A stretch of 64,000 nt of DNA. Source: Stegostoma tigrinum (taxonomy: Eukaryota). A program made the translations under genes and the position numbers. How positions within the stretch are numbered: position 1 is the stretch's first letter; each line of letters begins with the position of its first letter. Where the stretch lies: NCBI RefSeq assembly GCF_030684315.1, contig NC_081354.1, forward strand, positions 53,968,259-54,032,258, read 5' to 3'. Positions 3,513-57,955 of the stretch are shown one piece after another. The notes beneath the pieces were generated by a model, which saw nothing but the letters and a program-made list of their open reading frames with translations, had not been told where the DNA came from and did not search any database.

Positions 3513-3638
3513 ATGAAACTGACTTTGGTGCTTTTGTTCTGCATTTCAGCAGTTCAAGCACGGATGGACGAGTATGATTATGATGAGTTTCCATCAGGTC
3601 AGCCTGAGACACCAGATGCTGCATTGCCAAATACTGGG
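3513..3638 (+). CDS. FGB: FGB exon 1 (signal peptide and most of fibrinopeptide B)
   Basis: ACCATG start; [42 protein letters not shown]; phase-0 donor gtaaga at 3639. Confidence 0.88.
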
Positions 3639-6600
3639 GTAAGAAATGTGAAAAATGTTGTGCTGTATTGACTCTAATGACTTTTCTGCACAATGCACAC
3701 GTTTGTGCTCTTGTATTCTTTTACGAAGTTCAACCATTTATTTTGTTCTAACATTCAGAAATAGGGCCATGTTTATCTTCCATTGTTGATCAAGCTGAAA
3801 TCCACAAACCATATAATAAAGGAGCACTGATAGGCTGCACCGGTGTGATTTAAAATTGCTTGTGTTTTGTGGCTCAGACAACATGATGCTATACGTTTGT
3901 GTGAAGGAGACAAAACTTTTCACGAATACATAATGGCATCTGAAATAATCTGAATTTGATTTTGAGTGTGAAGTCGCTTCCAGATGTAAGTCTCAAATCA
4001 CATGGGATTCTCACTTCTGAAAAGAACACACAATTTTTTAAAAATTGAAGATTTAAAAGTTGCCATGTCTGTAATATTCTTCCATGATAAACAAACATAA
4101 ATGCAGGGTTCAGTCACTCAACTAAATTGAATAATTCCTTCAAACAAGTAGGAATCACATGTGGACACGTTAACCCTTCATGTGCTAGTATCATCCAACT
4201 TAACTCCCACCTAATTTTTTAATGTCAGTAAAAGACTTATCATCCAGCAAGCTAATATTATAAGTTACAGCAACATTATGATGCCAGCCAGAAGATTTCT
4301 CTGTGTACATTTAACTATCTGAGGCTGATTTCTGATTTTCCTTGATAAGGGTAATGGCAGAGTTGGTTGTGTAACTCAGTGCCAGTGATTTGTTTAAGTG
4401 TCAAAGCAAGTGTTCATTTTATATATCAGTTCTGACTCTCAGATTTCTGCTGAATTAAAATTAAACAGTAAGGAGTCAGAAAGGAGAAGTCAGAAAAGTG
4501 GTGCTTTCGTGTAACTCAATGTTATATCCCATTGCCTGAAAAGATAGCACATACTCCACGTGGATACAGACCTGATACTGATGGCGTAAACACTTACAGA
4601 AGACCTCAACCAGTTTACACTGGTGGAAGTACTGGCGGGAGAAGAATGAGATATAGGATCCAGCCCACTCCAAGCACCCAACGATCCAGCAGTGTTGTGG
4701 AGACAGAACAGCCAGAAGCAGGAGGATGCAAACATTTATCTGTAGCTAAGGTAAGGTCCACCGACTTCCAGGATGTAATGTATTGGACTGAATCTTGCCT
4801 ATAGAAAGCCCTACCACTGAGATGGAAGTCCCAAGCTTGAGACTGTGGGTGTTAGGACTGCAGGGCTAACTTTACCGTGGTGGCCAATTAAGTGGCTGCT
4901 GCCAGGATTACCATCTAATCGAGAACAGTAGCCCACCTTTCAAAGCTGGGCCACTTTGCAGAATCTGGCTGCAATGAATTTTCATTGAATCAGCAAAGCC
5001 AATAAAAGGTGTTGGCCCCTCAGCATCAGATTTGAAAAGAATACCAAACCTGAACGTATCTTCCCAAATGGCAGTGAGTAAGAAATGGTCACGTACAGCC
5101 CCGCAGATGGAGCATTCCCTCAACACTGATCTCCTGGGAGTTGTGGCTTTTTTCATTTATATTTCAAATTTTTCACAAAATTTTGAGTTCTTTGCTCCAT
5201 GTTGTGACACTATCCCTTTCTCTCACTCACATCAGCAGTACGTCAGCAGCTCCCCTCCCGCTCTGCCCCCAGGTAACTGGAGAGTATACCAGCCTGTCTT
5301 CTTTAATTGGACAGCTAGTGTACCTTTAGCCATGATTGGTCTCCTGGTCAAAATTTGCATCAGCCATCATGTACTGGTGTGATGCGTAGACAGGAACGAA
5401 AATGGCACATGAGCTGAAGCACAGCATATGTTTGCTTAGTCGGCCTCTGACCTGGAGAGGATATGGTGTTGAAAGCTCATCTTAGAGTTGAATAGGAAAC
5501 AGAGATTGCAAACAATATGATAGATCCTGAGGGAATAACTGCAGAAATGAATTCATTTAGTGGCATGGCAATAGAATTTGTAGGTGATGATGTAGTTTCA
5601 GTCTTTCCAAAAGCAAATGGAAGAAAGTTCAGTTTATCCAAGGATGGACATTGGACAAACAGCCTGACACAGTGGAGACAGCTGGTGGAGGGCTCAACTT
5701 GGCCATTGAGGTGGCCAGGAACTCTGCAGATGTAGATTTGCAAAAAGCTAGATGAAAGCCAATTCATTTAGCTCAGGAGGGTGCTCTACATCATTGCTAA
5801 TGCAATCTCAAAGTCTTTGAGTCTTGGGCTGACCTTGGAACATCATTTACATCTTGTACATCACAGGATACTGTTGGAGACTGATGCCTTGTACACAAAA
5901 TAGTATCAAATTTTGCACAGACCTCAGAGAAAAATGAGGTCCATGCCTCAAAACCTGTAGAATAAAAGAATTTCCCTGGTAGATTGCAAGAACAGTGGTC
6001 TGTGCTAAAAAAAAATGTTCCAACAGGAAGCTAAAGGCCTACAATCTAACTTGTTCATGGCAATTTGCACTGCATCTTGCAAATCTTAGGCAAACCTCCA
6101 CACAGCACTCCTGATTGTGAAGGTTTGGATACCTAGCTTGTCAGACAGATGATGTGTTACCAAAGAAGAAACAAAAAAGGAAAGTGATGATGGAGCCAAC
6201 TCACCAACACCTTGGCAATGCACAAATTATTCTGTTGAAACATTTCCCCAGTGAGGTCACTAAGTCTGCTATCTGTGCTATTGAGGCTGCAGATTGAAAG
6301 ATCTAAGAGGGGCAGGCAGGAAGGATGTTGAGGAATCAAGAAAGTAAGTGTTTTTCCTATCACAGGAGTGACAAATGGGATTTGTGCTTAGAAACCTTTG
6401 GATTTCTGTGTGGAGCTAGTAGCCAGAAGGACTGCAGTTTTGACCAGCCCAGATTCTGAGTGAAAGGCCTCGCCAAAGAAAAGGCCTGAGTCTAGTGAGC
6501 ATTTGGCATCTGGCAATGACCTGAACCTTAAAGTACAGGGAAGTTTGGGACAAGTCAGGCAGAGCGCAGTTTGGGTGAACTCTATCTTGCTTGCTGCTTT

Positions 6601-21384: not shown

Positions 21385-22085
21385 CTAACTTGTTGGTCGG
21401 ATTTTTGCTCTTACCACCTTAAGGGAGTAGTCGCTACCTTTGAAGGGGACCCATACCACCCCATTTTCTATTTCGTACGGCATGTTGTTACGAGGATCAT
21501 ACAATCCCCCCTGGTAGTAAATTCCATTTAGATTAGCTGACTGACAACTATTGTACCACCAGCCTCCTCCAAAAAATTTTGCACAGTTCTCCTCCCATTT
21601 ATCGTTATCTCTGTCATAAGTACTAAATTTCATATTTGCATGGGAGGTATATTCACTATCTAACGGCAGCCCTGCTACTAATGCATCCCCAGCATTTCCT
21701 CCATAACTGCCAATGTTTAGACGATAGCTTTCTGATTCAGAACTCACAGTTACAGTGTATTCAGCAAATGCCTCATTCCCTGACCAGTCCTCTAGCTCTA
21801 TACGCAAGATGCTTTCCTTCTGTGTGAGTAAATGGAGGACTTCATTTCCCAGCCAGATGTTTCCATGGCCTTGTTTGTCAATGTTACCAAATCCCTGTCT
21901 GTAGTCATCCCAGGATCGGTTAAAGTTAGCTGATCCATTCATTCGCTGCTGAACCAGCACCCAACCACCCAGTTCAGTGCTCTGATCACAGTAAACTGTT
22001 ACAACGTCAGCAGAGCCAGTAGGTTTTATCTTGAATAAACCATTTTCATCACCAGACGCATGCTTTTGCATGATGTCCATGCAAT
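21385..22085 (-). CDS. FGA: FGA exon 6 (alpha-EC globular fibrinogen-related domain)
   Basis: DCMDIMQK...VYCDQSTELGGWVLVQQRMNGS...KWEENCAKFFGGGWWYNSCQSANLNG...YEIENGVVWVPFKGSDYSL; single uninterrupted exon typical of alpha-E. Confidence 0.96.
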
Positions 22086-25000
22086 CTGGAAACAAACATT
22101 AAAAATGCACATTAAATTAGAAAAGGAGAGCATATGAACAGCAGTTTCAGATGGACACAAAGAAAAAAGCTACTGTTAAACATATATTCTATGCAATCTG
22201 ATTGTCAGTATCACAAATTACATTCTCCAGAAGGCTTCTTAGATATTTTTAAAAATATCAAATTCCATACCCAGCATTCATTTAGACATTTATATACCTT
22301 ACACTTTAGCAACCTATGAAATATTAATGTGTTTTTTACCGTGTTTGCAAAACAAGTAACAGACATCAATCAGAAATGCCTATCCATGGAACCATGTATA
22401 ACACAGCTCATTGATTCAATCTGCATATTGACTCTATGGAAAAAAATGCAACAAATTTTAATTTAAATTATAATTAATCATACCTTTCCCAATGTAGCCT
22501 TCAATCTTCTGCACTTTATCAATGTTAAAGCTACGGGCCTGCAAATCCACACGCTCCTCTCCACTTTCATCATCAAAAGGCAAGTTTAGTTTCAAAGTTC
22601 TTTGGGTGGTACTTGAGGATTTTGAAAAGCCCTTAGAATCGTTTGTATTGGTGGACTGATGGCTACAGCTGCTGTTAACAGATTCAGCGTGAGGTGCATT
22701 GTCTTTAGAATTTGTCACCTCTTTGGTTGAAGGGCAGGCATGTTTTCTGTTGTTAGTCATTACAGAATTCTCAAAATGCCCCAAAGTTGAATAATCGGTG
22801 AAATCACTAGAGCTGCTGTTCTTTGTTTGAGCTAAATGAGCAGAAGAGCCTTCACTTGTTTGTTGCAACGGTAATTCTTTAAAATCTGTTTGGCCTGAAT
22901 TGAGGATTGACAAATCAGAAGAAGCAGCTTGATTGACTGCCTTTGTGTCACCATGTTTGGTGAAAGTTTGATTTATGACAACTTTAGAACCAGATACAGA
23001 GTAGTTTGATTTGGTGGAATAAGAACTATATGAAGAAGTTGATTTGACTGAAACATTTATGAAAAGTGGCTCTTCAATCCTATTATCCAGGCTGCCGTGC
23101 TTTAGGGATACATACGTTTTCTCTGTGCTATTTAGTCCATGGGTTAAGGGCACAAAACTACCCTTCATGCTAATTGTATGATTGTCAACACCTTTGATTG
23201 TGGATATAATCTTTGGAGTCATTGGCGCAGAAGTTAAGAATGAATCTTCATAAAAGCCAGTATCTTGTTGTGAATTTGCATGTGGTGCATCATTTTCTAT
23301 GGTAATTAATCTAGTGTGGAGTCTAGTTCTGAATGTAGTTCGTTCCTCAGATTTCTTCATCAAACTCAGTTTGAGCTTATGTATTGGCTTGTCATTCACA
23401 ACCCTGTCCAGTTTTATGCCTGTCATTGATTGGAGGGATTTCTCCATTCGGACATTACTCTCTTTGTTGGCATTGTAAACAACTGACTTTGCGCAAGATC
23501 CTTTGCAAGATTGTATCTTGATGTCAATGTCAACCTACCAAAAAAAAAATTCAAATCAAGCAATGCCAGTCATTAATGGGAAGAATGAAATTTGGGGAGT
23601 TTCTATTTTACTCCTTGCATCACCAAAGCTTTACGGCCATGAAATTTCCAAACAGCAAGTAGATAGTGAAAGGGATAACTGATAATTCTCTTGTATGAAT
23701 TATGTTGCCTAGTCATTACTGGAGGCATACATTGATAAGCAGCACATCAATAAACTATAAAAGGAAAATGTGGACTAACTTTAGATTATTGAATGAAATT
23801 AGTCTTTGGCAGTAGCACAAAAAATGATGGTAGTGAATTAGTAGCCCATTTTACACAATGCCCACTGATTTTTCCCATTAGCTGCCCTCAAGAACAAAGA
23901 GGCCACAGATGCAAAATTAAATGTGAGCAACATGAAACAGATAGTCAATGTAAGGTCTTTACACAGAGACTTGTGAAACAATGGAGTTCACTTCCAAGGT
24001 TAGCAATTGAGACAGAAGCATGTTAACTTTGAGTGGATAAGCGATGAAGGAAATATGGGCCAAGAGATATGAGAACAAGGTGGTGAAATGTGATTGGCAA
24101 TCGGATGGAGGATAATTGCTATTATAAGTTATTGGGCCTATTTTCTCATTTTAATCTTTGGCTCTGATTTTCATAGAATGAGAGTGACTCTGCAAAGCAG
24201 ATGGGACCTAATTCTGAGATTCCCACTCCCTTCCCAATGCCCCCGATTTTCACTGAAGATGGGTAAGAGTGTGGGTGATGATTCTTCACCCAATACTCCC
24301 AAACTGGCCAGCTCCATTGCAAATGATGCACCTCTGAGCACTGTGTAGTTTTAATGGAATTGGACCCACTTTTGATGATTCATGGTTTAACGCCCCTCAG
24401 AGCAGTTATGAACCATAGTCTGGGTTTAGGAGCCTTTTGAAAGGTTCCTTCATGTTCCTACCTTCCACCTAATGGTCCATGTCAAGTCATTGGCTACTAC
24501 TGCCCATCACCCATACCCATGGAACCTTACAGATCCTACGCAAATATTGCAACATGTGCCCCACCCACACCAACCCTTCTAAAATCATTATGATGCTTGG
24601 TTAAAAACTGAAACTCTTATAATAGGATAATCTGAAGTAAGTTTGTCTATACAGGTCCAAAGTGTTGTTGACTTTGACACTTCTGAGGTAATCATTTGTC
24701 TTTTATTCCTCTAATTTTTTTTACCATTGTCTTAATGTTTATTTGCATAAGATTAAGGGATGTCAAGTGCTTAAAGCTTCTGTTATTGATACTTCAATGA
24801 CACATTTGTCAATCAGCTGTTGTTTTCCAGAAATCAATGTTTTTTAAATCAATTTCACTCTTCCGGTGTCACCATATGATTAATTGTTTTTTTCATATAA
24901 TGTACATTGTGGAAATTGGCATGGGAAATATAAGGGGCAAGGAGTGGAATGGAGCATGAGTTGGCATTGAGATAGCATGGGCAGTGAATGGGGACGTGAC

Positions 25001-28000
25001 GGGGCAAGAGCTTGAGTGCCTGAAATGTAACCAAACACCTGGGACAAAGTCTAACAGAACCAAGGCAGATTGTGAAAGAGATAATAACCAGGCTACCCCA
25101 GTACTTAGCAGCTTCCGTTGCCACTTTGGATCTGTTTCTGTGGGTAATGGGCCTGCCACTATTCCATGCCCCTGTCGCTTGGCTGAAACAGGTTGCAAAG
25201 GAGCTTATATACTAGAATTGGGAAATTTCCTAAATTGAGCTATCTGTATTGGTAGTGAAAATCTAAACATTTATGCATTTCTTAGCCAAAATGAAATCAT
25301 GAAACCCAGCTCCAAGAACATCTTATCAAAGGAAGGGAGGACTTTTATGATCCTTGGTACAAACATATTAATCAAATGATCAGGTGTCATCTAAGTTCAA
25401 TATTTTAATTATAAAGACACTGATAACATATATTAAAGATAGTTAATTATAATCTGTTACATCTTGTGCCATTTATGTGTGGGGGATGTGTCAGATTCAG
25501 AAGGAGACCATAGAGGTTTTGAGTGTTTTATGGTCGAAGCTGATGTTATTATTTAACAAGTCAGCTCTCATACTGAACTCTAACTTGATGGATTTTTTTT
25601 ATTTTAATGAAGTGGTCTTCCTTGAAATGTGAGCATGCAATGCCACAGATTTGGATTTAGCAATAAAACGGAAGTCTTTTACACAAAAGAAATGAAGATA
25701 AAATAAAATGAATCAAATTATTTACAATTAAAAAATGTTTAATGTTTTTGAAGCAAGTAGTAAAGATATAATTCTATCACTCCCCGCAGCATACCATAAG
25801 AATACCCAAACATCAGACAGAATGTCTTCTCTAGTTTTCGCTTGAGCTCCTGATGATGAGAATGTGACAGCCTCTTGCATATTTCACCTTGTAACTGAGA
25901 TTTGGGTTTTGACATAACTCCTCCAGGGTTTTGACCAAACACCTCCAATTCACCAACAACTAAGAACTCGACAGAAATGCTAATCTGAAACTAAAAGAAA
26001 ACTGTTTTCTCACCCCAAGCTATGGATGTTTAACCTAAACTCAAAAAACAATTCCAGAATCTGAGAGTGCGATGCATTGCATTGTTTACTTTGTTTGCTT
26101 GAAAATTCTCCCAATGGAAATGGAAGCCGACTGCTCTAAAACTACTTCTCTCAGACTGCATTTTTAAAGAGAAAGTATTATGGCTGAGGAAATACTTGCA
26201 GGTTCTTTCTCGAGGACTATTGACAAGGTGCCATGCAGGAGGCTGCTAAATAAGGTAAGAGCCCATGTTGTTAGGGGCAAGGTACTGGCATGGATAGAGG
26301 GTTGGCTAATTGGCAGAGACAGAAAAGGGGACTTTTTTCAGGATGACAGCTGGTGGCTAGTAAAGTTCTGCAGGGGTCTTATTGGGACCTCAATAATTCG
26401 GTTATACATTAATGATATGCACAAAGTGGCTAAATGCACTTTTGCTAAGTTTGCAGACAACACAAAGATAGGTGGATGGAGAAATAGTGTTGAAGAGGTG
26501 GCAGAGGCTGTAGAGGGACTTGGACAGACTAAGAGATTCCCTGGCCCCAAACACCTCATTTTCACCATGGACGTCCAGTCCCTATACACCTGTATTCCTC
26601 ATGCAGATGGCCTCAAGGCCCTCTGGTTCTTCCTGTCCCACAGGCCCGACCAGTCACCCTCCACTGACACCCTCATTCTGCATAGCCGAACTCATCCTCA
26701 CCCTCAACAACTTCTCTTTGGCTTCATCTCACTTCCTACAGACAAAGGGGGTGGCCAAGGGTAAACGCATGGGTCCTAGCTATGCCTGCCTCTTTGTAGG
26801 TTACGTGGAACAGTCCCTCTTCTGCACCTACACAGGCCCCAAACCCCACCTCTTCCTCCGTTTCATTGATGACTGAATTGGTGCCGCCTCTTGCTCCCAA
26901 GAGGAGCTCAAACAGTTCATCCACTTCACCAACACCTTCCACCCCAACCTCAAGTTCACCTGGGCCATCTCCAACACATCCCTCACCTTCCTGGACCTCT
27001 CTGTCTCCATCTCAGGTAATCAGCTAGAAACTGATGTCCATTTCAAGCCCATTGACTCCCACAGCTACCTAGAATATACCTCCTCCCACCCACCTTCCTG
27101 CAAAAATTCCATCCCCTATTCCCAATTCCTTCGCCTCCACCGCATCTGCTCCCAGGATGAGGCATTCCACTCCCGCACATTCCAGATGTCCACGTTCTTC
27201 AAGGACTGCAACATCCCCCCCACAGTGGTCGAGAACACCCTTGACCGTGTCTCCCGCATTTCCCGCAACACATCCCTCACACCCCGCCCCCAACAAAAAC
27301 CGCCCTAAGAGGATCCCCCTCAACCTCACATACCACCCCAACAACCTCCGGATACAACGTATCATCCTCTGACACTTCTGCCATCTACAATCCAACCCCA
27401 CCACCCAAGACATTTTTCCATCACCACCCTTGTCTGCCTTCCGGAGAGACGACTCTCTCCGCGACTCCCTTGTCTGCTCCACACTCCCCTCCAACCCCAC
27501 CACACCCGGCACCTTCCACTGCAACTGCAGGAAGTGCTACACTTGCCTCCACACCTCCACCCTCACCCCCATCCCAGGCCCCAAGATGACTTTCCATATT
27601 AAGCAGAGGTTCACCTGCACATCTGCCAATGTGGTATACTGCATCCACTGTACCCAGTGTGGCTTTCTCTACATAGGGGAAACCAAGTGGAGGATTGGGG
27701 ACCGCTTTGCAGAACACCTATGCTCGGTTCGCAATAAACAACTGCACCTTCCAGTCACGAACCATTTTAACTCCTCCTCCCATTTCTTAGACAATATGTC
27801 CATCATGGGCCTCCTGCAGTGCCACAATGATGCCACCCAAAGGTTGCAGGAACAGCAACTCATATTCCGCTTGGGAACACTGCAACCCAATGGTATCAAT
27901 GTGGACTTCACAAGCTTCAAAATCTCCCCTTCCCCCATTGCATCCCAAAACCAGCCCAGCTTGTTCCCCGCCTCCCTAACCTGTTCTTCCTCTCACTTAT

Positions 28001-31000
28001 CCCCTCCTCCCACCTCAAGCCACACCTCCATTTCCTACCTACTAACCTCATCTCGCTTCCTTGACCTGCCATCCTCCATGGACTGACCTATCCCCTCCCT
28101 ACCTCCCCACCTATACTCTCCTCTCCACCTATCTTCTTTTCTCTCCATCTTCGGTCCGCCTCCCCCTCTCTCCCTATTTATTCCAGAACCCTCACCCCAT
28201 CCCCCTCTCTGATGAAGGGTCTAGGCCCGAAACGTCAGCTTTTGTGCTCCTGAGATGTTGCTTGGCCTGCTGTGTTCATCCAGCTACCCGCTTTGTTATC
28301 ATGACATTAATAGTTACTGTATTAGGGTTAATATTGTAAATAAAAATGGCAGACTTTGCAACTTTCAGAGTGAAAGCATTGCACTTTCAAAATGAATAAT
28401 AAATAGACCGCAGTGGCTCACGAAGGCAGCTCAGAACTACCTTCTCAAGGGCAATAAGGGACGGGTAATAAGTGCTGGCCAGCCAATGATGTCCACTTCT
28501 CACAAATAAACGAAATAAAAAATTACCTCCAGTCTTGAGACAACCTTGAATTGTTCTAACATGTTATCTTTTAGTATTTTTAACTTGAGACTTTGATCGT
28601 TAGTTTTGTTCTGCAACATGGTAAGCCTGGAATTCAGATGATCCACCAACTGATAATAAGTGTCGCCAAGTCCTAAAAGATGACAAATAAATTCTTCTAT
28701 TTAGTTTTTCATTGGGTTCTGCAAGTACATTTTTTAAATAAATTAGTAATTTGAACTAAATCCAAATGAATGTCGAAGCTGCATTTCCTGAATCTGAATT
28801 AATTGGGAGGGGAATTTTGTAGTTGCACAATCCTCAACGGATGCGCTATTGTGATAATCTGAGTTTGTGATTCAATTTTAATTTGTATGGAAATAAAAGC
28901 TGACACTTTTAAGAAACATGAACAGAGGAACGGCATAGTCACTCAGTGGCACAGAGCCAGGGATCTGGGTTCTATTCCACCCTTGGGCCACTGCCTGTGT
29001 GGAGTTTGCACCTTCTCCCAGTGTCTGTGTGGGTTTCCTCCAGGTGCTTGCAGTTTCCTCCCACACTCCAAAGATATGCAGGCTCGGTGGATTGGCCATG
29101 CTAAATTTCCTGTAGCATTCAGGGATGTGTAGATTAGGTAGGTAATGCGGGATGGGTGGGATGCTTTGAGGGTCAGTATGGACTTGTTGGGCCAAAGGGC
29201 CTGTTTCAACACTGTAGGGATTCTACGTTTCTATAAACCACTCACCACCTATCTTGCTTAGAGTCTGTCTGATTCTGTTGACAGCTTCAGTCGCAGTAAT
29301 ATGGGTATTCTCAAATGCTGTGGAATATATGTCCAACATCTGTCGAATTGCTTGGATCCTGTTATCAGTTTGTTGATTCTCAGTCTTGATTAATCCCTGA
29401 ATTCTACACCCAGATGGACATTTAGAGCCCTATTGAATTTAGGCAAAATTATAAAATATTTTAGTTATTTGCAATGTATAATTTCTCAAAAAAATGAAGT
29501 GACAACTGCATTACTTACCCAGTCACAATTCATACAAATCTGCCATTTCTTCTCTGAACACTGAGTAGATTTAAATTGGTCGCCATTTCCAATGGGTTGA
29601 GGACCCCAAGGTGCAGGGGAAGACTGGGCCTGAATCTTCAATTGTAAGAAATCAATAAAAAGGGAATCCTTTGACATATTCGACACTGATCTACAATCAT
29701 CAACCTGGCATGTTCCTTTGAACAAAGATAACAATGTGTAGAGCTGGATGAACACAGCAGCCAAGCAGCATCAGAGGAGTAGGAAGGCTGACGTTTCAAA
29801 CCTAGATTAGGCCCAAAACATCAGTCTTCCTGCTCCTCTGATGCCGCTTGGCCTGCTGTGTTCATCCAGCTCTACACCTTGTTATCTCAGATTTTCCAGC
29901 ATCAGCAGTTCCTACTATCCCTTGAACAAGGGATAACTTATGTGTGAAAATAACATATTCTCTTCAATAACAGACTCCATTGCTTCACGAAATTTACAAT
30001 CATGATCAGACAGCATTTATGGCCTCACATAATAAAATGCATGAAATTCTTCTAAACATTGGATATATTTTCATGTTTTCACTGTTGAAAACAAGCATTT
30101 AAAAAATCCATGCATTTACAGTAAGAATACAGCACTACAGTAAGAAATAAATAGCTTCACTTCCATTGGGAAAAATTGCAGATAAAGTGGGAGCTTAAAT
30201 CTTTTTGACTAGGTGTCAGAGTGGTAGAGCATGTCACCTTACTGTTGTTCCATCTTTGATTTCAAAAATTTTATAATTTAAAAATTTGAGCATTAAACAT
30301 ACTTCCCATGATGTCATATTAATTTGGAGTGAAGCTACTTGAAGTTATAGTAATAGGCAACTGCCTGACAAACATACTGAATTAAGAGACCAAATTGTAC
30401 AACAGAAGCAAATAAACTCCATGATGGCTAATTTATAATATTAGGAAATAGCAGGTGGGAGTGTCCACTTCCTCCTTTCTTTGATCTTCTGGAGAAGGTT
30501 CAGTCTACCACCTTGGCTTTCTACCAGAATGGAGTAAGAATGCATTTGGAGCCAAGCCAGATTGTTATGAGATGACCTCTGTCTTCTGTCTGTACCTCAG
30601 GACACTTGATATTTCTTTGGAACCTCACTTCCATGTTCTACCCCAATTTTCACATCAATATGGACCCAAAACTACTTGACATGTGTGAAAGTAGCTGTAT
30701 ACATGAAGCCTTAACAACACATGAGATAATAATTGCGTATGTTTTATGCTCACTTCACTGGAGATGATAGTAATGACATCAGAGATTATAATAACCTTTG
30801 ATTGAATATTTTGTTTTCCACGGAGATGATGTCATTATACTCATACGACAAAAACTGATTTTCCTTCAAAGATTGATTCTTATATTTTCCAAACCTACTT
30901 CCTGCTGCAAATCACAATCACAGTGCCCCTACATTCACAAGGACCAATCTGCAAAGGGATATAGCGCCCCATTTCACTTCATTAAATTTACCTAAATCAA

Positions 31001-31267
31001 TACGGATTAATTGCCAACATGTTACAGAAAGACCATTACTTTTGAAGTGTAATGGGATTTGATTTATATCCCACTCTCAATACAGTTCACAACTCCTTCC
31101 TAACTTTGTTATGAAGGAGTTATTAGGTTGGCCTACTCTCAGGATATAAATCAGAGCCGCTGGATCTTCACAATGTATCCTCTGTGTATGACTTATTCAT
31201 AAGGAAAACTTACCCAGTCAACTAACATGAAGCATACAAACAAACCAAAGGCTTGTTTAGCTCTCAT
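21385..31267 (-). CDS. FGA: Fibrinogen alpha chain gene, 6 exons; extended alpha-E form 750 aa (short read-through form 525 aa)
   Basis: Exons 31267-31214, 29635-29519, 29429-29246, 28672-28527, 23534-22484, 22085-21385 join in frame. Motifs KCPSGCRIQGLI and RLE|VDIDIKIQSCKGSC; C-terminal fibrinogen-related domain. Confidence 0.95.
22458..23534 (-). CDS. FGA: FGA exon 5 (alpha-C region); internal donor after 22484 gives alpha-E, read-through stop at 22458
   Basis: VDIDIKIQSCKGSC start; long Ser/Thr-rich ORF; AAAG|gtatga donor. Confidence 0.93.
   Translation of the reverse strand, partial: VDIDIKIQSCKGSCAKSVVYNANKESNVRMEKSLQSMTGIKLDRVVNDKPIHKLKLSLMKKSEERTTFRTRLHTRLITIENDAPHANSQQDTGFYEDSFLTSAPMTPKIISTIKGVDNHTISMKGSFVPLTHGLNSTEKTYVSLKHGSLDNRIEEPLFINVSVKSTSSYSSYSTKSNYSVSGSKVVINQTFTKHGDTKAVNQAASSDLSILNSGQTDFKELPLQQTSEGSSAHLAQTKNSSSSDFTDYSTLGHFENSVMTNNRKHACPSTKEVTNSKDNAPHAESVNSSCSHQSTNTNDSKGFSKSSSTTQRTLKLNLPFDDESGEERVDLQARSFNIDKVQKIEGYIGKGMINYNLN
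26215..26530 (+). mobile_element. CR1 RT fragment abutting the Penelope element
   Basis: DKVPCRRLLNKV...GKVLAWIEGWL...AKFADNTKIGG. Confidence 0.75.
26535..28300 (+). mobile_element. 5'-truncated Penelope-like retroelement (RT, GIY-YIG endonuclease, pseudo-LTR) in FGA intron 4, frameshifted
   Basis: ORF fragments FTMDVQSLYTCIPH, GVAKGKRMGPSYACLFVG, FLRFIDD, VVYCIHCTQCGFLYIGET...RFAEH; C-rich 3' region and terminal repeat with a hammerhead motif. Confidence 0.88.
28209..28238 (+). ncRNA. Minimal hammerhead ribozyme motif in the Penelope pseudo-LTR
   Basis: CTGATGA-A-GGGT CTAG GCCC-GAAA-CG-TC-AG: core boxes CUGAUGA and GAAA, stem II, GUC triplet. Confidence 0.65.
28527..28672 (-). CDS. FGA: FGA exon 4
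   Basis: LGDTYYQLVDHLNSRL...QFKVVSRLE; 146 nt. Confidence 0.93.
28931..29232 (+). mobile_element. tRNA-derived SINE (HE1-like) in FGA intron 3
   Basis: tRNA-like head with gggttcnattcc B-box, tgtgtggagtttgcac core, CR1-like tail cactgtagggattcta. Confidence 0.78.
29246..29429 (-). CDS. FGA: FGA exon 3
   Basis: GSKCPSGCRIQGLIKTENQQTDNRIQAIRQML...; 184 nt; donor gtgagt. Confidence 0.95.
29519..29635 (-). CDS. FGA: FGA exon 2 (fibrinopeptide A / knob region; alternative acceptor at 29629)
   Basis: (IQ)AQSSPAPWGPQPIGNGDQFKSTQCSEKKWQICMNCDW, aligns to human ...R [25 protein letters not shown]; donor gtaagt. Confidence 0.88.
29726..29921. mobile_element. Penelope-derived palindromic mini-element in FGA intron 1
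   Basis: gataacaa..gagctggatgaacacagcag / ctgctgtgttcatccagctc..ttgttatc inverted arms; ttgaacaa on both flanks. Confidence 0.78.
31214..31267 (-). CDS. FGA: FGA exon 1 (signal peptide)
   Basis: MRAKQAFGLFVCFMLVDW, 54 nt ending in W then gtaagt, matching the mammalian FGA exon 1 layout. Confidence 0.82.
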
Positions 31268-41992: not shown

Positions 41993-42171
41993 TTAGTAAT
42001 CGCCTCTTCGTGATTCAGACTGCTCTATCTGTCCCATCCTTTGTAATTCATTGTATTTTGTTGCTGGGATGATTTTCATTGTGGTCTCTTTCAGGGAGTA
42101 CCAGCGACTGTGCCACGTTGCCCAAATAATACCATTGTCAAACCCATAGTCCGATGCTGTGTAATTGCCAC
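41993..42171 (-). CDS. FGG: FGG exon 9 (terminal)
   Basis: [59 protein letters not shown]. Confidence 0.93.
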
Positions 42172-45100
42172 CTGAAACAAAGGCAAATAAATTTTATTTC
42201 ATTGCAGTGGGAATGTCACGAAAACACAGTGAATCACAAAATATCGCTCTGGTTTTCTTTCCACCATTTCTCCTCAGAAAGTGCGAATCATTTATAGAAA
42301 GTAACCAAATCAATTCAAAAAGAATTCAGGAAAAACATTTCTGCCCAGAGAGCGGCCAGGATTGAAACCACCATGTAGAGGAAATTAGCATAAATATACT
42401 TGAGTGGTTTTGGGACTGGAGTAGAGAGATGTTGAATCACAATTGATCCTTCCCACTTTCCATCCCCTTCATAAGCAGCAGAAATCTGGGCTGATTTGTC
42501 CCCTCCAATCTCATAACTATTCACTTCAGTTGTGACACTCACTTCTGTCCTGGCTGAGGTCAGTCCCTGACACACATGGGAGACTGAATGGTAGAAATTC
42601 CTCTTGTGCACATTTGCACAGTTCATGAAGGTGGTGGCTTAGGGCCAACCTTCTCTCAAAGTGGTGAAATAAATCTGGACGTTTTTCACCTCCTCCCCAA
42701 GGTTTGGCCTGGATTGCTGAGAGTGATTTTCAGCAGCGATCTGCCTGTTCTCACTTCCAAATGAACAGGTGGGCTCGAGAATTTGAAGGTGCTCCTTAGT
42801 TGACCCCATTGATTGCCAAGGCCCACTTTGACTAATTGAACAGATTGTCTACCTCCTGCCACCAGGGTGCTGTTTAATTCAGCAAATTGCAAATAAAGTC
42901 CCTGACTACAATTTTAGTGTATAAATAGGCATGTTTTTTTTTGTGTACACTCTGCCCATTTGTACCACAGGTTTAGTGGCTGAAAATTGGCCAGTAACGA
43001 GCTAAGGAAATTATTCAAGCAATTTCTGTGAGAGCGTTTGTCCTGGGCACCAATAAAAAAAATTCATCCTGCTGCGAGGCACCTCCCACCTTGCATCCTT
43101 GGATCACTTCTCCTGTCAGGAATGACAAATGCACAAACAATTCGAATCTCTATCCTAACCACAACTGCCGAGCAGCAGGCAAGTGCCTGTTTGTGTACCC
43201 TTCTGCTAGATGGGCTATAAGCTTCTCCACAGGAGTTGGGAGGTCATGTTGCAGTTGTATAGGATATTGGTTAGGACAGTTCTGGAATAGTGCGTGCAAT
43301 TCCGCTCTCCCTACTAAAGGAAAGATGTTGTTAAACTAGAAAGGATTCAGAAAAGATTTATGAGGATGTTGCCAAGGTTGGGTTGTTTGGCCTATATGGA
43401 GAGGCTGAATAGGATGGGGCTATTTTCTCTGGAATGTCATAGGCTGAGGGGTGACCTTACAGAGGTTTATAAAATCATGAGGGGTATGGCTTGGGTGAAT
43501 AGCCAAGGTCTTTTCCTTGGGGTTGGGGGTCCAAAACTAGAGGGCATAAGTTTAAGATGAAGGGGGAAAGATTTAAAAGAGGCCTAAGGGGCAACATTCT
43601 CACACAGAGGGTGGTGCGTGTAAGGGATGAACTGCCAGCAGAAGTAATGAAGGCTGGTACAATTACAACATTTAAAAGGCATTTGTTTGAGCATATGAAT
43701 AGGAAGGGTTTAGAGGGATTTGGGCAAAATGCTGGCAAATGGTACAGGATTAATTTAGGACATCTGGTCAGCATGGACAAGTTGGACCAAAGAGTCTGTT
43801 TCCATGCTGTACAGCTCTATGTCTCTACGATTTTTGCGGTTACCATCCTTTGCTGTTAACTTTACAAATGCTTATAACAGAATATGTCTTGTTGTTAATT
43901 TTGTTCCTTCAGGTTCATGTAGGAATAGTATAAGGACCCTCATTTAATGCTCTGCCTGCGAACCAAAAGTGTGCATTGATTGCAATCACAGATTATCTGT
44001 AATTCAGAATTCAACCAAAGAGCTTCAACTGGGGCACATAGTTGCTGTATTGTACAGACTGCCAGGATATGAGTGCGATATGCCAATAAGCCTCTGTCTG
44101 TTCCTTTCCCGAACAAAACAGTGGCAATGGCACAACATTTTAATGAAAAGTTGTTGACCTGAAATATTAGCTCAGTTTCCCTCTTTGCCAACACTGCCTG
44201 ACTATTTCCAGCATTTTCTGGTCCTATTTCAGATTTCCATCGTCTGCAGTGTTCTGCTTTAGCAGTTTATTTCTTTAGCCTCTGTAATGAATTGCTGTTT
44301 GGTCAATTTCATAGGAAATGTTCAGCAGGTCTGGCAGCATCTGTGAAGGAGAAAACAGAGTTAACATTTTGGGTCCAGTGACTCTTCCTCAGAACGTTAA
44401 CTCTGTTTTCTCCTTCACAGATGCTGCCAGACCTGCTGAGCTTTTCCAGCAACTTTGTTTTTGTTCCTGATTTACAGCATCCGCAGTTCTTTTGGTTTTC
44501 ATAGGAAATGTGTTTGAGCATTGTTCACAAAAATATACAGTGGATGAGAAGTTTTACCTTTGTGATATATGCCATTAAGATTTCCTGCATGACATTTGTT
44601 CATCCACCAGCCGCTTTGATCTTGTTCAGCACAGTTGCCTTCATACTTATCATTATCAAAGTCACTTGTGCTAAACTGCATAAAGTTGTGTGATGTATAG
44701 AATCTATCACTGGGATCATCTCCAAAGTCAAAACCAGCAAAGGCATCTCCAGCATCTCCTCCCAGGAACATGCCATAACGCAATCGATATTTGTCCTCCT
44801 CACTTCCCACTTTAAAATCCAAATATTTAGCATGTCTGGAGGGAAAGAGAAATTAGTCAACACTCATCCAATGCAGTAACAATCCTTTGCCCTTCTGTAG
44901 TATAAACATAGCAGAATCAAGCTTCACACCCCAGGCATCAATAGCCCACTACATATTTGGTGCAGTGAGGAGCTGAAAGGATACATGTGCTGTGAAAATG
45001 TAAACGCAAAGTTGAAAGGCCTGCATCTAATAGGACTCTCAGCCAGTTGACTTTTGCACTGGAAAAATTGGATCTTCTGGGAAAAAGATGTTCCAGACCA

Positions 45101-56788: not shown

Positions 56789-57955
56789 CAAAGAAACAAA
56801 GAAACAAAGAAACCTACAGCACAGGGACAGGCCCTTCGGCCCCCTAAGCCTGCGCTGATCAAGATCCTCTGTCTAACCTGTCATCTATTTTCTAACAGTC
56901 TGTGTCCATTTGCTCCCTGCCCATCCATGTACTGTCCAAATATATCTTAAAAGACGCTAACGTGTCTGGATCTACCACCTCCGCTGGCAACGCATTCCAA
57001 GCACCCACCACCCTCTGTGTAAAGAACTTTCCACGCATATCTCCCTTAAACTTTCCTCCTCTCACTTTGAACTCATGGCCCCTAGTAATTGAGTCCCCCA
57101 CTCTGGGAAAAAGCTTTTTGCTATCCACCCTGTCTATACCCCTCATGATTTTGTAGACCTCAATCAGGTCCCCCCTCAATCTCCATCTTTCTAATGAAAA
57201 TAATCCTAATCTACTCAACCTTTCTTCATAGCTAGCACCCTCCATACCAGGCAACATCCTGGTGAACCTCCTCTGCGCCCTCTCTAAAGCATCCACATCC
57301 TTTTGGTAATGTGGTGACCAGAACTTCAAACAGTACTCCAAATGTGGCCGAACCAAAGTCCTATACAATTGCAACATGACCTGCCAACTCTTGTAGTCAA
57401 TACCCTGCCCAATGAAGGAAAGCATGCCATATGCCTTCTTGACCACCCTATTGACCTGCGTTGTCACCTTCAGGGAACAGTGGACCTGAACACCCAGAGC
57501 TCTCTGTTCATCAATTTTCCCTAGGACTTTTCCATTTACTGTATAATTCGCCCTTGAATTTGATCTTCCAAAATGCATCACCTCGCATTTGCCCACATTG
57601 AACTCCATCTGCCATTTATCTGCCCAACTCTTCAGTCTATCTATATTCTGCTGTAATCTCTCACAGTCCCCTTCACTATCAGCTTCTCCACCAATCTTAG
57701 TGTCATCAGCAAACTTGCTGATCAGACCACCTACACCTTCCTCCAGATCATTTACATATATCACAAACAATAGTGGTCCCAGCACAGATACCTGTGGAAC
57801 ACCACTGGTCACAGGTCTCCAATTTGAGAAACGCCCTTCTACTAGTACTCTCTATCTCCTATTGCATAGCCAGTTTTTTATCCATCTAGCTAGCACACCC
57901 TGGACCCCAAGTGACTTCACTTTCTCCATCAGCCTGCCATGGGGAACCTTATCAA
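56789..57955 (-). mobile_element. Young 5'-truncated CR1-clade LINE (HER1-like) with an open RT C-terminal ORF
   Basis: 306-aa ORF SGVPQVSVLGPLLF...KFADDTKIGG...LVRPHLEYC...RLRGDLIEVYK; 3' microsatellite tail (caaagaaa)x3 at about 56789-56813. Confidence 0.92.

Follow-up and report, generated by a model that had tools for sequence, protein, structure and literature searches.

Cartilaginous fishes have two fibrinogen alpha-chain genes as a general feature. The one in the 64,000-nt stretch of zebra shark (Stegostoma tigrinum) DNA analysed here, the window, is in our view fairly likely to be a sub-functionalised, knob-less alphaE gene whose product would enter clots as an acceptor only. The two genes, the split of domains between them, the distribution of the thrombin-site motif, and the conserved cysteines, coiled coil and alphaEC domain are established from genomic DNA and gene models. 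The short copy (S; exons 1-5, no alphaEC) would provide the thrombin site and knob A and build the clot, and the window gene (E), between FGB and FGG, would encode the extended alphaE chain only. Rather than build clots, the E copy probably modifies them or serves as the carrier of a cell-binding domain. Public databases already contain annotations for both genes; what is new here is a lineage-wide knob-less alphaE paralogue. A literature search with most subscription journals outside its scope found no report of a cartilaginous-fish FGA pair or of the knob loss.

The extended FGA gene of the window

In the assembly, exon 2 of the window FGA (minus strand) reads PW-GPQP, the tryptophan being encoded by TGG (29608-29606) and the glutamine by CAA (29599-29597). 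The exon translates as IQAQSSPAPWGPQPIGNGDQFKSTQCSEKKWQICMNCDW (29635-29519, minus strand), and the stretch around the lost site is ...SSPAPWGPQPIG...ICMNCDW. The earlier note on this DNA had reported W-G-P-Q in place of R-G-P-R in an intact gene of six canonically spliced exons, and we found the same. All exons have AG/GT ends (Table 1), and the spliced translation is an exact match to the 750-aa database protein P0123 (isoform X1). The note had also stated that the mature chain has no Arg ahead of CPSGC. Within the first 80 residues Arg indeed occurs only at position 2, in the signal peptide, and at position 66, after CPSGC. An alternative exon 2 in the window was dismissed, as no RGPR occurs there in six frames.

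The gene is an FGA by its rings and its place. The CPSGC and CKGSC rings are 116 apart with a coiled coil between them, PF08702 scores above cut-off, and the gene (21385-31267, minus strand) lies between FGB (plus strand, from 3513) and FGG (minus strand, past 42000). It is of the alphaE type, with a C-terminal alphaEC domain encoded by a single exon. The best PDB match of this exon 6 is 1FZD, human fibrinogen-420 alphaEC (E 8.6e-93), and gamma chains follow at 1e-58. A polymerising Aalpha chain has a P1 Arg and a Gly-x-Arg knob A; the short paralogue carries both and the window gene has W-GPQ. The frame breaks and loss of constraint of a pseudogene were not seen: the 750-codon frame is open and conservation equals that of the clotting copy.

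Table 1. Features of the window, in window coordinates
Feature	Position	Strand	Remarks
FGB thrombin site and knob B, PR/GYRP	4556..4573	+	FGB ATG at 3513
FGA-E exon 6, alphaEC fibrinogen-related domain	21385..22085	-	coding 22085-21386, stop to 21385; sole alphaE-type exon found in genome
FGA-E exon 5, CKGSC ring and alphaC-position spacer, 8 N-glycan sequons	22484..23534	-	
FGA-E exon 4, coiled coil	28527..28672	-	
FGA-E exon 3, CPSGC ring and coiled-coil start	29246..29429	-	154/184 nt identical to paralogue
FGA-E exon 2, degenerate thrombin site/knob A; 2 conserved Cys and 1 extra	29519..29635	-	acceptor AAG, CAG in short paralogue; skipped in database model P0002
W-G-P-Q codons TGG GGT CCT CAA	29597..29608	-	short paralogue R/G-P-R = CGG GGT CCT CGA
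FGA-E exon 1, signal peptide	31214..31267	-	conserved across alphaE orthologues
FGG stretches carrying hole-a motifs	42122..44630	-	

The short paralogue and the motif across vertebrates

A search of the genome with exons 3 and 2 found one more FGA copy (G000:C1:53956533-53956902), about 11.4 kb to the left of the window; the C60 match of the same search (E 3.6) was dismissed as chance. The short FGA (G000:C1:53957323-53951225) has 5 exons and a 527-aa product (P0018), a short alpha chain with PR/GPRP. Its exon 2 reads TVLQPR/GPRPVG, with the codons CCT CGG GGT CCT CGA where the window has CCT TGG GGT CCT CAA. A paralogue in the same genome has CGG and CGA at the two changed codons, which supports the CpG-type origin proposed earlier for both. 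A second FGA elsewhere, which the same author had considered, therefore exists. The statement that the cluster holds none is correct within the 64 kb and breaks down about 11.4 kb past the left edge.

The short FGA and FGB are head-to-head, with an ATG-ATG distance of 14.4 kb, and the gene order is S, FGB, E, FGG. Pfam Fib_alpha gave 5 matches in 4 genes, namely FGB (twice), FGG and the two FGA. No exon 6 was found within about 21 kb downstream of the short FGA. Exon 6 had 19 matches in the genome: the window's own is 100% identical, and the remaining 18 are 36-52% identical. The extended chain has its own gene, as in a lamprey-type second alpha gene. The human type, in which alphaE arises by splicing of the common-chain gene, does not describe this locus, the knob-bearing short chain being a separate gene without exon 6.

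We compared E copies from 21 cartilaginous-fish species with 16 S sequences, both copies being available in 13 species. The knob region was not included in either of the word-index queries that supplied this set. Counted over gene models, with related species that are not independent, R-G-x-R was kept in 16/16 S sequences and in the E copies of 3/21 species. In bony vertebrates R-G-x-R is present in all 133 chains whose exon 2 is complete. This set had 140 rows with the ring, from which 7 were dropped (1 beta chain and 6 truncated or exon-2-skipping models); 7 more rows had no ring match.

The E copies have lost the motif in many ways. The site is W-GPQ in the zebra shark, R-DPQ in 2 Chiloscyllium, R-SLQ in Mustelus, C-PPQ in Pristiophorus, R-GPQ in Carcharodon, Cetorhinus and Pristis, H-GPR and H-GPQ in Scyliorhinus, H-GPQ/H-GPK in 3 skates, G-GAQ/G-RAQ in 4 rays, and S-HSQ in Narcine, where the alignment is uncertain. 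Among the elasmobranch E copies the knob Arg3 is gone in 17/20 and the P1 Arg in 12/20, and a usable knob is absent in 18/20. The E tree (18 rows) has at least 5 changes at P1 and at least 4 at knob position 3. The Fisher value for this pattern is too strong, the species being related. Assembly error in the zebra shark is unlikely, because in 17 other shark and ray orthologues the motif is likewise gone, through different substitutions. By this comparison, what is common to the E copies is the loss of the knob and no new cleavage site; the E chains of some species may still be cleaved.

The earlier note had suggested that this lineage clots without A:a bonds, or uses another protease that cuts after Trp. 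The starting point was sound, in that the window contains a single FGA, placed between FGB and FGG, and this gene is without the motif. Two observations argue against the first suggestion, the conservation of R-G-x-R in 16/16 S copies, the zebra shark's PR/GPRP lying only 11 kb away, and the retention of the hole-a motifs of FGG, which should correspond to gamma Q329/D330/H340/D364. As for the protease, orthologues have W, H, C, G, S or R at P1, with none common to the E copies, and a cut after Trp would expose GPQ, not GPR. An expressed paralogue supplying GPR had been named beforehand as an observation that would overturn the suggestion, and such a paralogue is present, at the gene level. 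At this level clotting without knob A in the lineage is refuted, and we give this reading, in either form, almost no credence. The knob B of FGB reads GYRP, where mammals have GHRP. The zebra shark presumably has thrombin; a search of the genome for the thrombin light-chain family gave no match, and the controls were equally silent. These results are a warning to annotators: in cartilaginous fishes the FGA flanked by FGB and FGG, for which 'fibrinogen alpha chain' is a frequent label, probably does not encode the chain that clots.

Some other alpha chains in the survey were also unusual. P0214, a 375-aa alpha-like representative that is closest to eel FGA (48%), lacks R-G-x-R ahead of the ring and is perhaps another knob-less duplicate. 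The short FGA of Chiloscyllium punctatum and Hemiscyllium (P0049, P0051) lacks the first exon-2 Cys and sits on a long branch (0.82), and the central disulfide knot may be altered in bamboo and epaulette sharks. Sturgeon short and long alpha models (P0053, P0055) differ in exon 2, have RGPR in both, and look like separate genes.

Probable gene conversion and the origin of the pair

The E copies with RGPR are those of Heptranchias, Heterodontus and the chimaera. In Heptranchias E and S have identities of 1.00/1.00 in exons 2/3 and 0.84/0.62 in exons 4/5a. The values for Heterodontus are 0.89/0.82 and 0.38/0.44, respectively, and exon-2 identity in the other 10 elasmobranch E/S pairs is 0.25-0.57. 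Recent gene conversion fits this homogenisation of exons 2-3 in the two sharks; the Heptranchias case is possibly an annotation chimera. The chimaera, with E and S 0.56 identical in exon 2 and 0.90 in exon 3, may simply retain the ancestral state of the motif. In the zebra shark dS between E and S is 0.29 in exon 3 and 0.63-0.67 in exons 4-5, consistent with an older conversion in exon 3. Since three E copies keep the motif, knob-lessness is not essential to alphaE.

The elasmobranch E copies form one clade, with support of 86/95 and 92/93 in two trees. All cartilaginous FGA copies group together against bony FGA (100/100 unrooted, 94/91 with cyclostome outgroups), and the two chimaera copies pair with each other or come close to it. 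The AU test did not reject a clade of E and the bony chains (p-AU 0.2), and gene conversion blurs the tree. A duplication within cartilaginous fishes is possible, and so is an older, lamprey-like pair blurred by conversion.

The shark pair resembles the lamprey's alpha-1 and second alpha (alpha') chains in having short and extended chains on separate genes. Pan and Doolittle reportedly described such separate genes in lamprey in 1992. The second lamprey chain probably keeps its thrombin site, whereas the E copy of sharks and rays mostly does not. We found lamprey and hagfish alpha-1-like chains, with RGPR present and the C-terminal domain absent; none of the best 150 of the 232 matches could be identified as the second lamprey alpha chain.

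The alphaE chain is kept across vertebrates. Like the alphaE chain of human, tetrapod and teleost fibrinogen-420, shark alphaE has its C-terminal fibrinogen-related domain in one exon. Unlike the human chain, it is made by a separate gene, has lost knob A and has gained a sequon-rich spacer. In the accessible part of PMC8984085, human alphaE is a splice form of the single FGA. The exon 2 and knob A of human alphaE are therefore those of the common chain. With exon 2 common to both chains in bony vertebrates, selection on the alphaE knob is not separately readable there. In elasmobranchs alphaE is on its own gene, its knob is lost in 18/20 and its coil and alphaEC are kept, so that it is a natural knob-less chain. 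The pattern suggests that it is the C-terminal domain, not a part in polymerisation, for which alphaE has been conserved.

Constraint on the E copy and its possible role

Does the window gene still have a function? The coil has a mean identity over 9 elasmobranchs of 0.66 in E and 0.62 in S, and alphaEC reaches 0.79. Full-length E models exist in 21/21 species across sharks, rays and the chimaera; their alphaEC domains are 69-85% identical, and the ring spacing of 116 and both exon-2 Cys are kept in 21/21. The zebra-shark copy also shows wear. About 13-15 codons have been lost in frame (23345-23316, minus strand), removing a YPKFWEE-type stretch present in all 13 other aligned rows, and there is an unpaired extra Cys. 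The E/S dN/dS in the zebra shark is 0.58, averaged over both lineages. This wear and the lost active motif could be read as decay of a duplicate without present function. The full-length models, the conserved alphaEC and the fact that this is the genome's sole alphaE exon speak against it, and we regard such decay as very improbable. As judged by these features, the E gene is not dead.

The E chain could instead act outside the hexamer, secreted alone or without exon 2, carrying alphaEC as an immune or matrix ligand. Database models skip exon 2 in the zebra shark (P0002, for the window gene), Mustelus, Scyliorhinus torazame and Mobula birostris, and the exon-2 acceptor of the window gene (29660-29636, minus strand) has a weak AAG in place of the CAG found in the short paralogue. 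For Amblyraja there are 230-aa models that consist of the alphaEC domain only. Against a place in the hexamer, chains as predicted by the database models that leave out exon 2 or exons 3-4 would be incapable of normal assembly. However, exon-2 skipping also occurs in two bony-vertebrate models, and the exon-2 Cys and ring spacing are invariant and the coil is as conserved as the clotting copy's. We consider a role outside the hexamer improbable. The Amblyraja models (P0333, P0336, P0337) possibly reflect a duplicated exon 6.

We return to the reading of E as a sub-functionalised acceptor chain. Once polymerisation duty had been removed from E, its CpG-bearing Arg codons would have decayed. The knob Arg3 would have gone first, probably early in sharks and rays and mostly to Gln, and the P1 Arg would then have been lost several times, with gene conversion occasionally restoring the motif. 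We infer that E is secreted and assembles with beta and gamma into a hexamer, a minor fibrinogen-420-like molecule. The Arg of knob A is required for hole a. In PMC9278297, as far as its accessible part goes, A:a bonds drive protofibril formation and GPRP imitates knob A. An E fibrinogen with holes and knob B, and no knob A, would join fibrin as an acceptor-only unit. It would bring alphaEC on a glycosylated spacer, and would cap protofibrils or slow them to a degree set by its abundance. AlphaEC is a ligand of leukocyte integrins, according to a title cited in PMC8984085.

Comparable changes are known as alleles. Human dysfibrinogenaemia (Aalpha R16C/H, R19 variants, exon-2 skipping) and zebrafish AalphaE R28C and delta19-56 affect the same positions, with identical C and H substitutions, and they too place an uncleavable or knob-less chain alongside a normal one. 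They differ in being disease or engineered alleles of one gene, whereas in 18/20 elasmobranchs the change has become fixed, in a paralogue that is itself conserved. The available part of PMC7826895 describes zebrafish Aalpha R28C as thrombin-resistant, and reports that AalphaE R28C (uncleavable) or an exon-2-skipped chain dominantly lengthens occlusion time; edits made close to that Arg codon also led to skipping of exon 2.

Of two ways to read these data, neutral loss following sub-functionalisation is the simpler and a selected brake the bolder. In the latter the knob-less state would itself be maintained, with alphaE as an inherent dominant modulator, capping protofibrils and adjusting the thickness of fibres or the rate of clotting. 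In its favour are the absence of a usable knob from 18/20 elasmobranchs, even though conversion is able to bring it back, the dominance of both zebrafish chains (PMC7826895, in the part available) and a glycan-rich spacer that is conserved in kind. N-glycan sequons per 100 aa of spacer number 2.19 in E (18 rows), 0.43 in S (14) and 0.03 in bony long forms (80), and the spacer is 364 aa long in 7/18 E rows. However, the substitutions differ by lineage and most (W, H, C, Q) are CpG decay products, which fits relaxed selection, and RGPR persists in two sharks and the chimaera. Braking by a minor chain would also be weak; human fibrinogen-420, a splice form, makes up about 1% in adults in what is accessible of PMC8984085. 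We hold a selected brake to be possible, with the balance against it. The fuller proposal is that sharks and rays evolved a dedicated, gene-encoded dominant fibrin modulator, a knob-less, glycan-rich alphaE that uses its holes and knob B to enter fibres, where it caps protofibrils and presents leukocyte-binding alphaEC; we offer it just as tentatively. If it is true, fibrinogen-420 function has been uncoupled from polymerisation in nature.

Other observations concern the non-coding parts of the window. Read-through of exon 5 past its donor (22484-22461, minus strand) meets a stop after 8 further codons and could thereby yield a short form that lacks both the knob and alphaEC; such a form is absent from all 3 database isoforms. 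Intron 1 contains a short palindromic repeat element (29726-29887). Reverse-transcriptase fragments, LINE-like as judged by eye, lie in intron 4 (26100-28300) and near the right end of the window (56895-57851).
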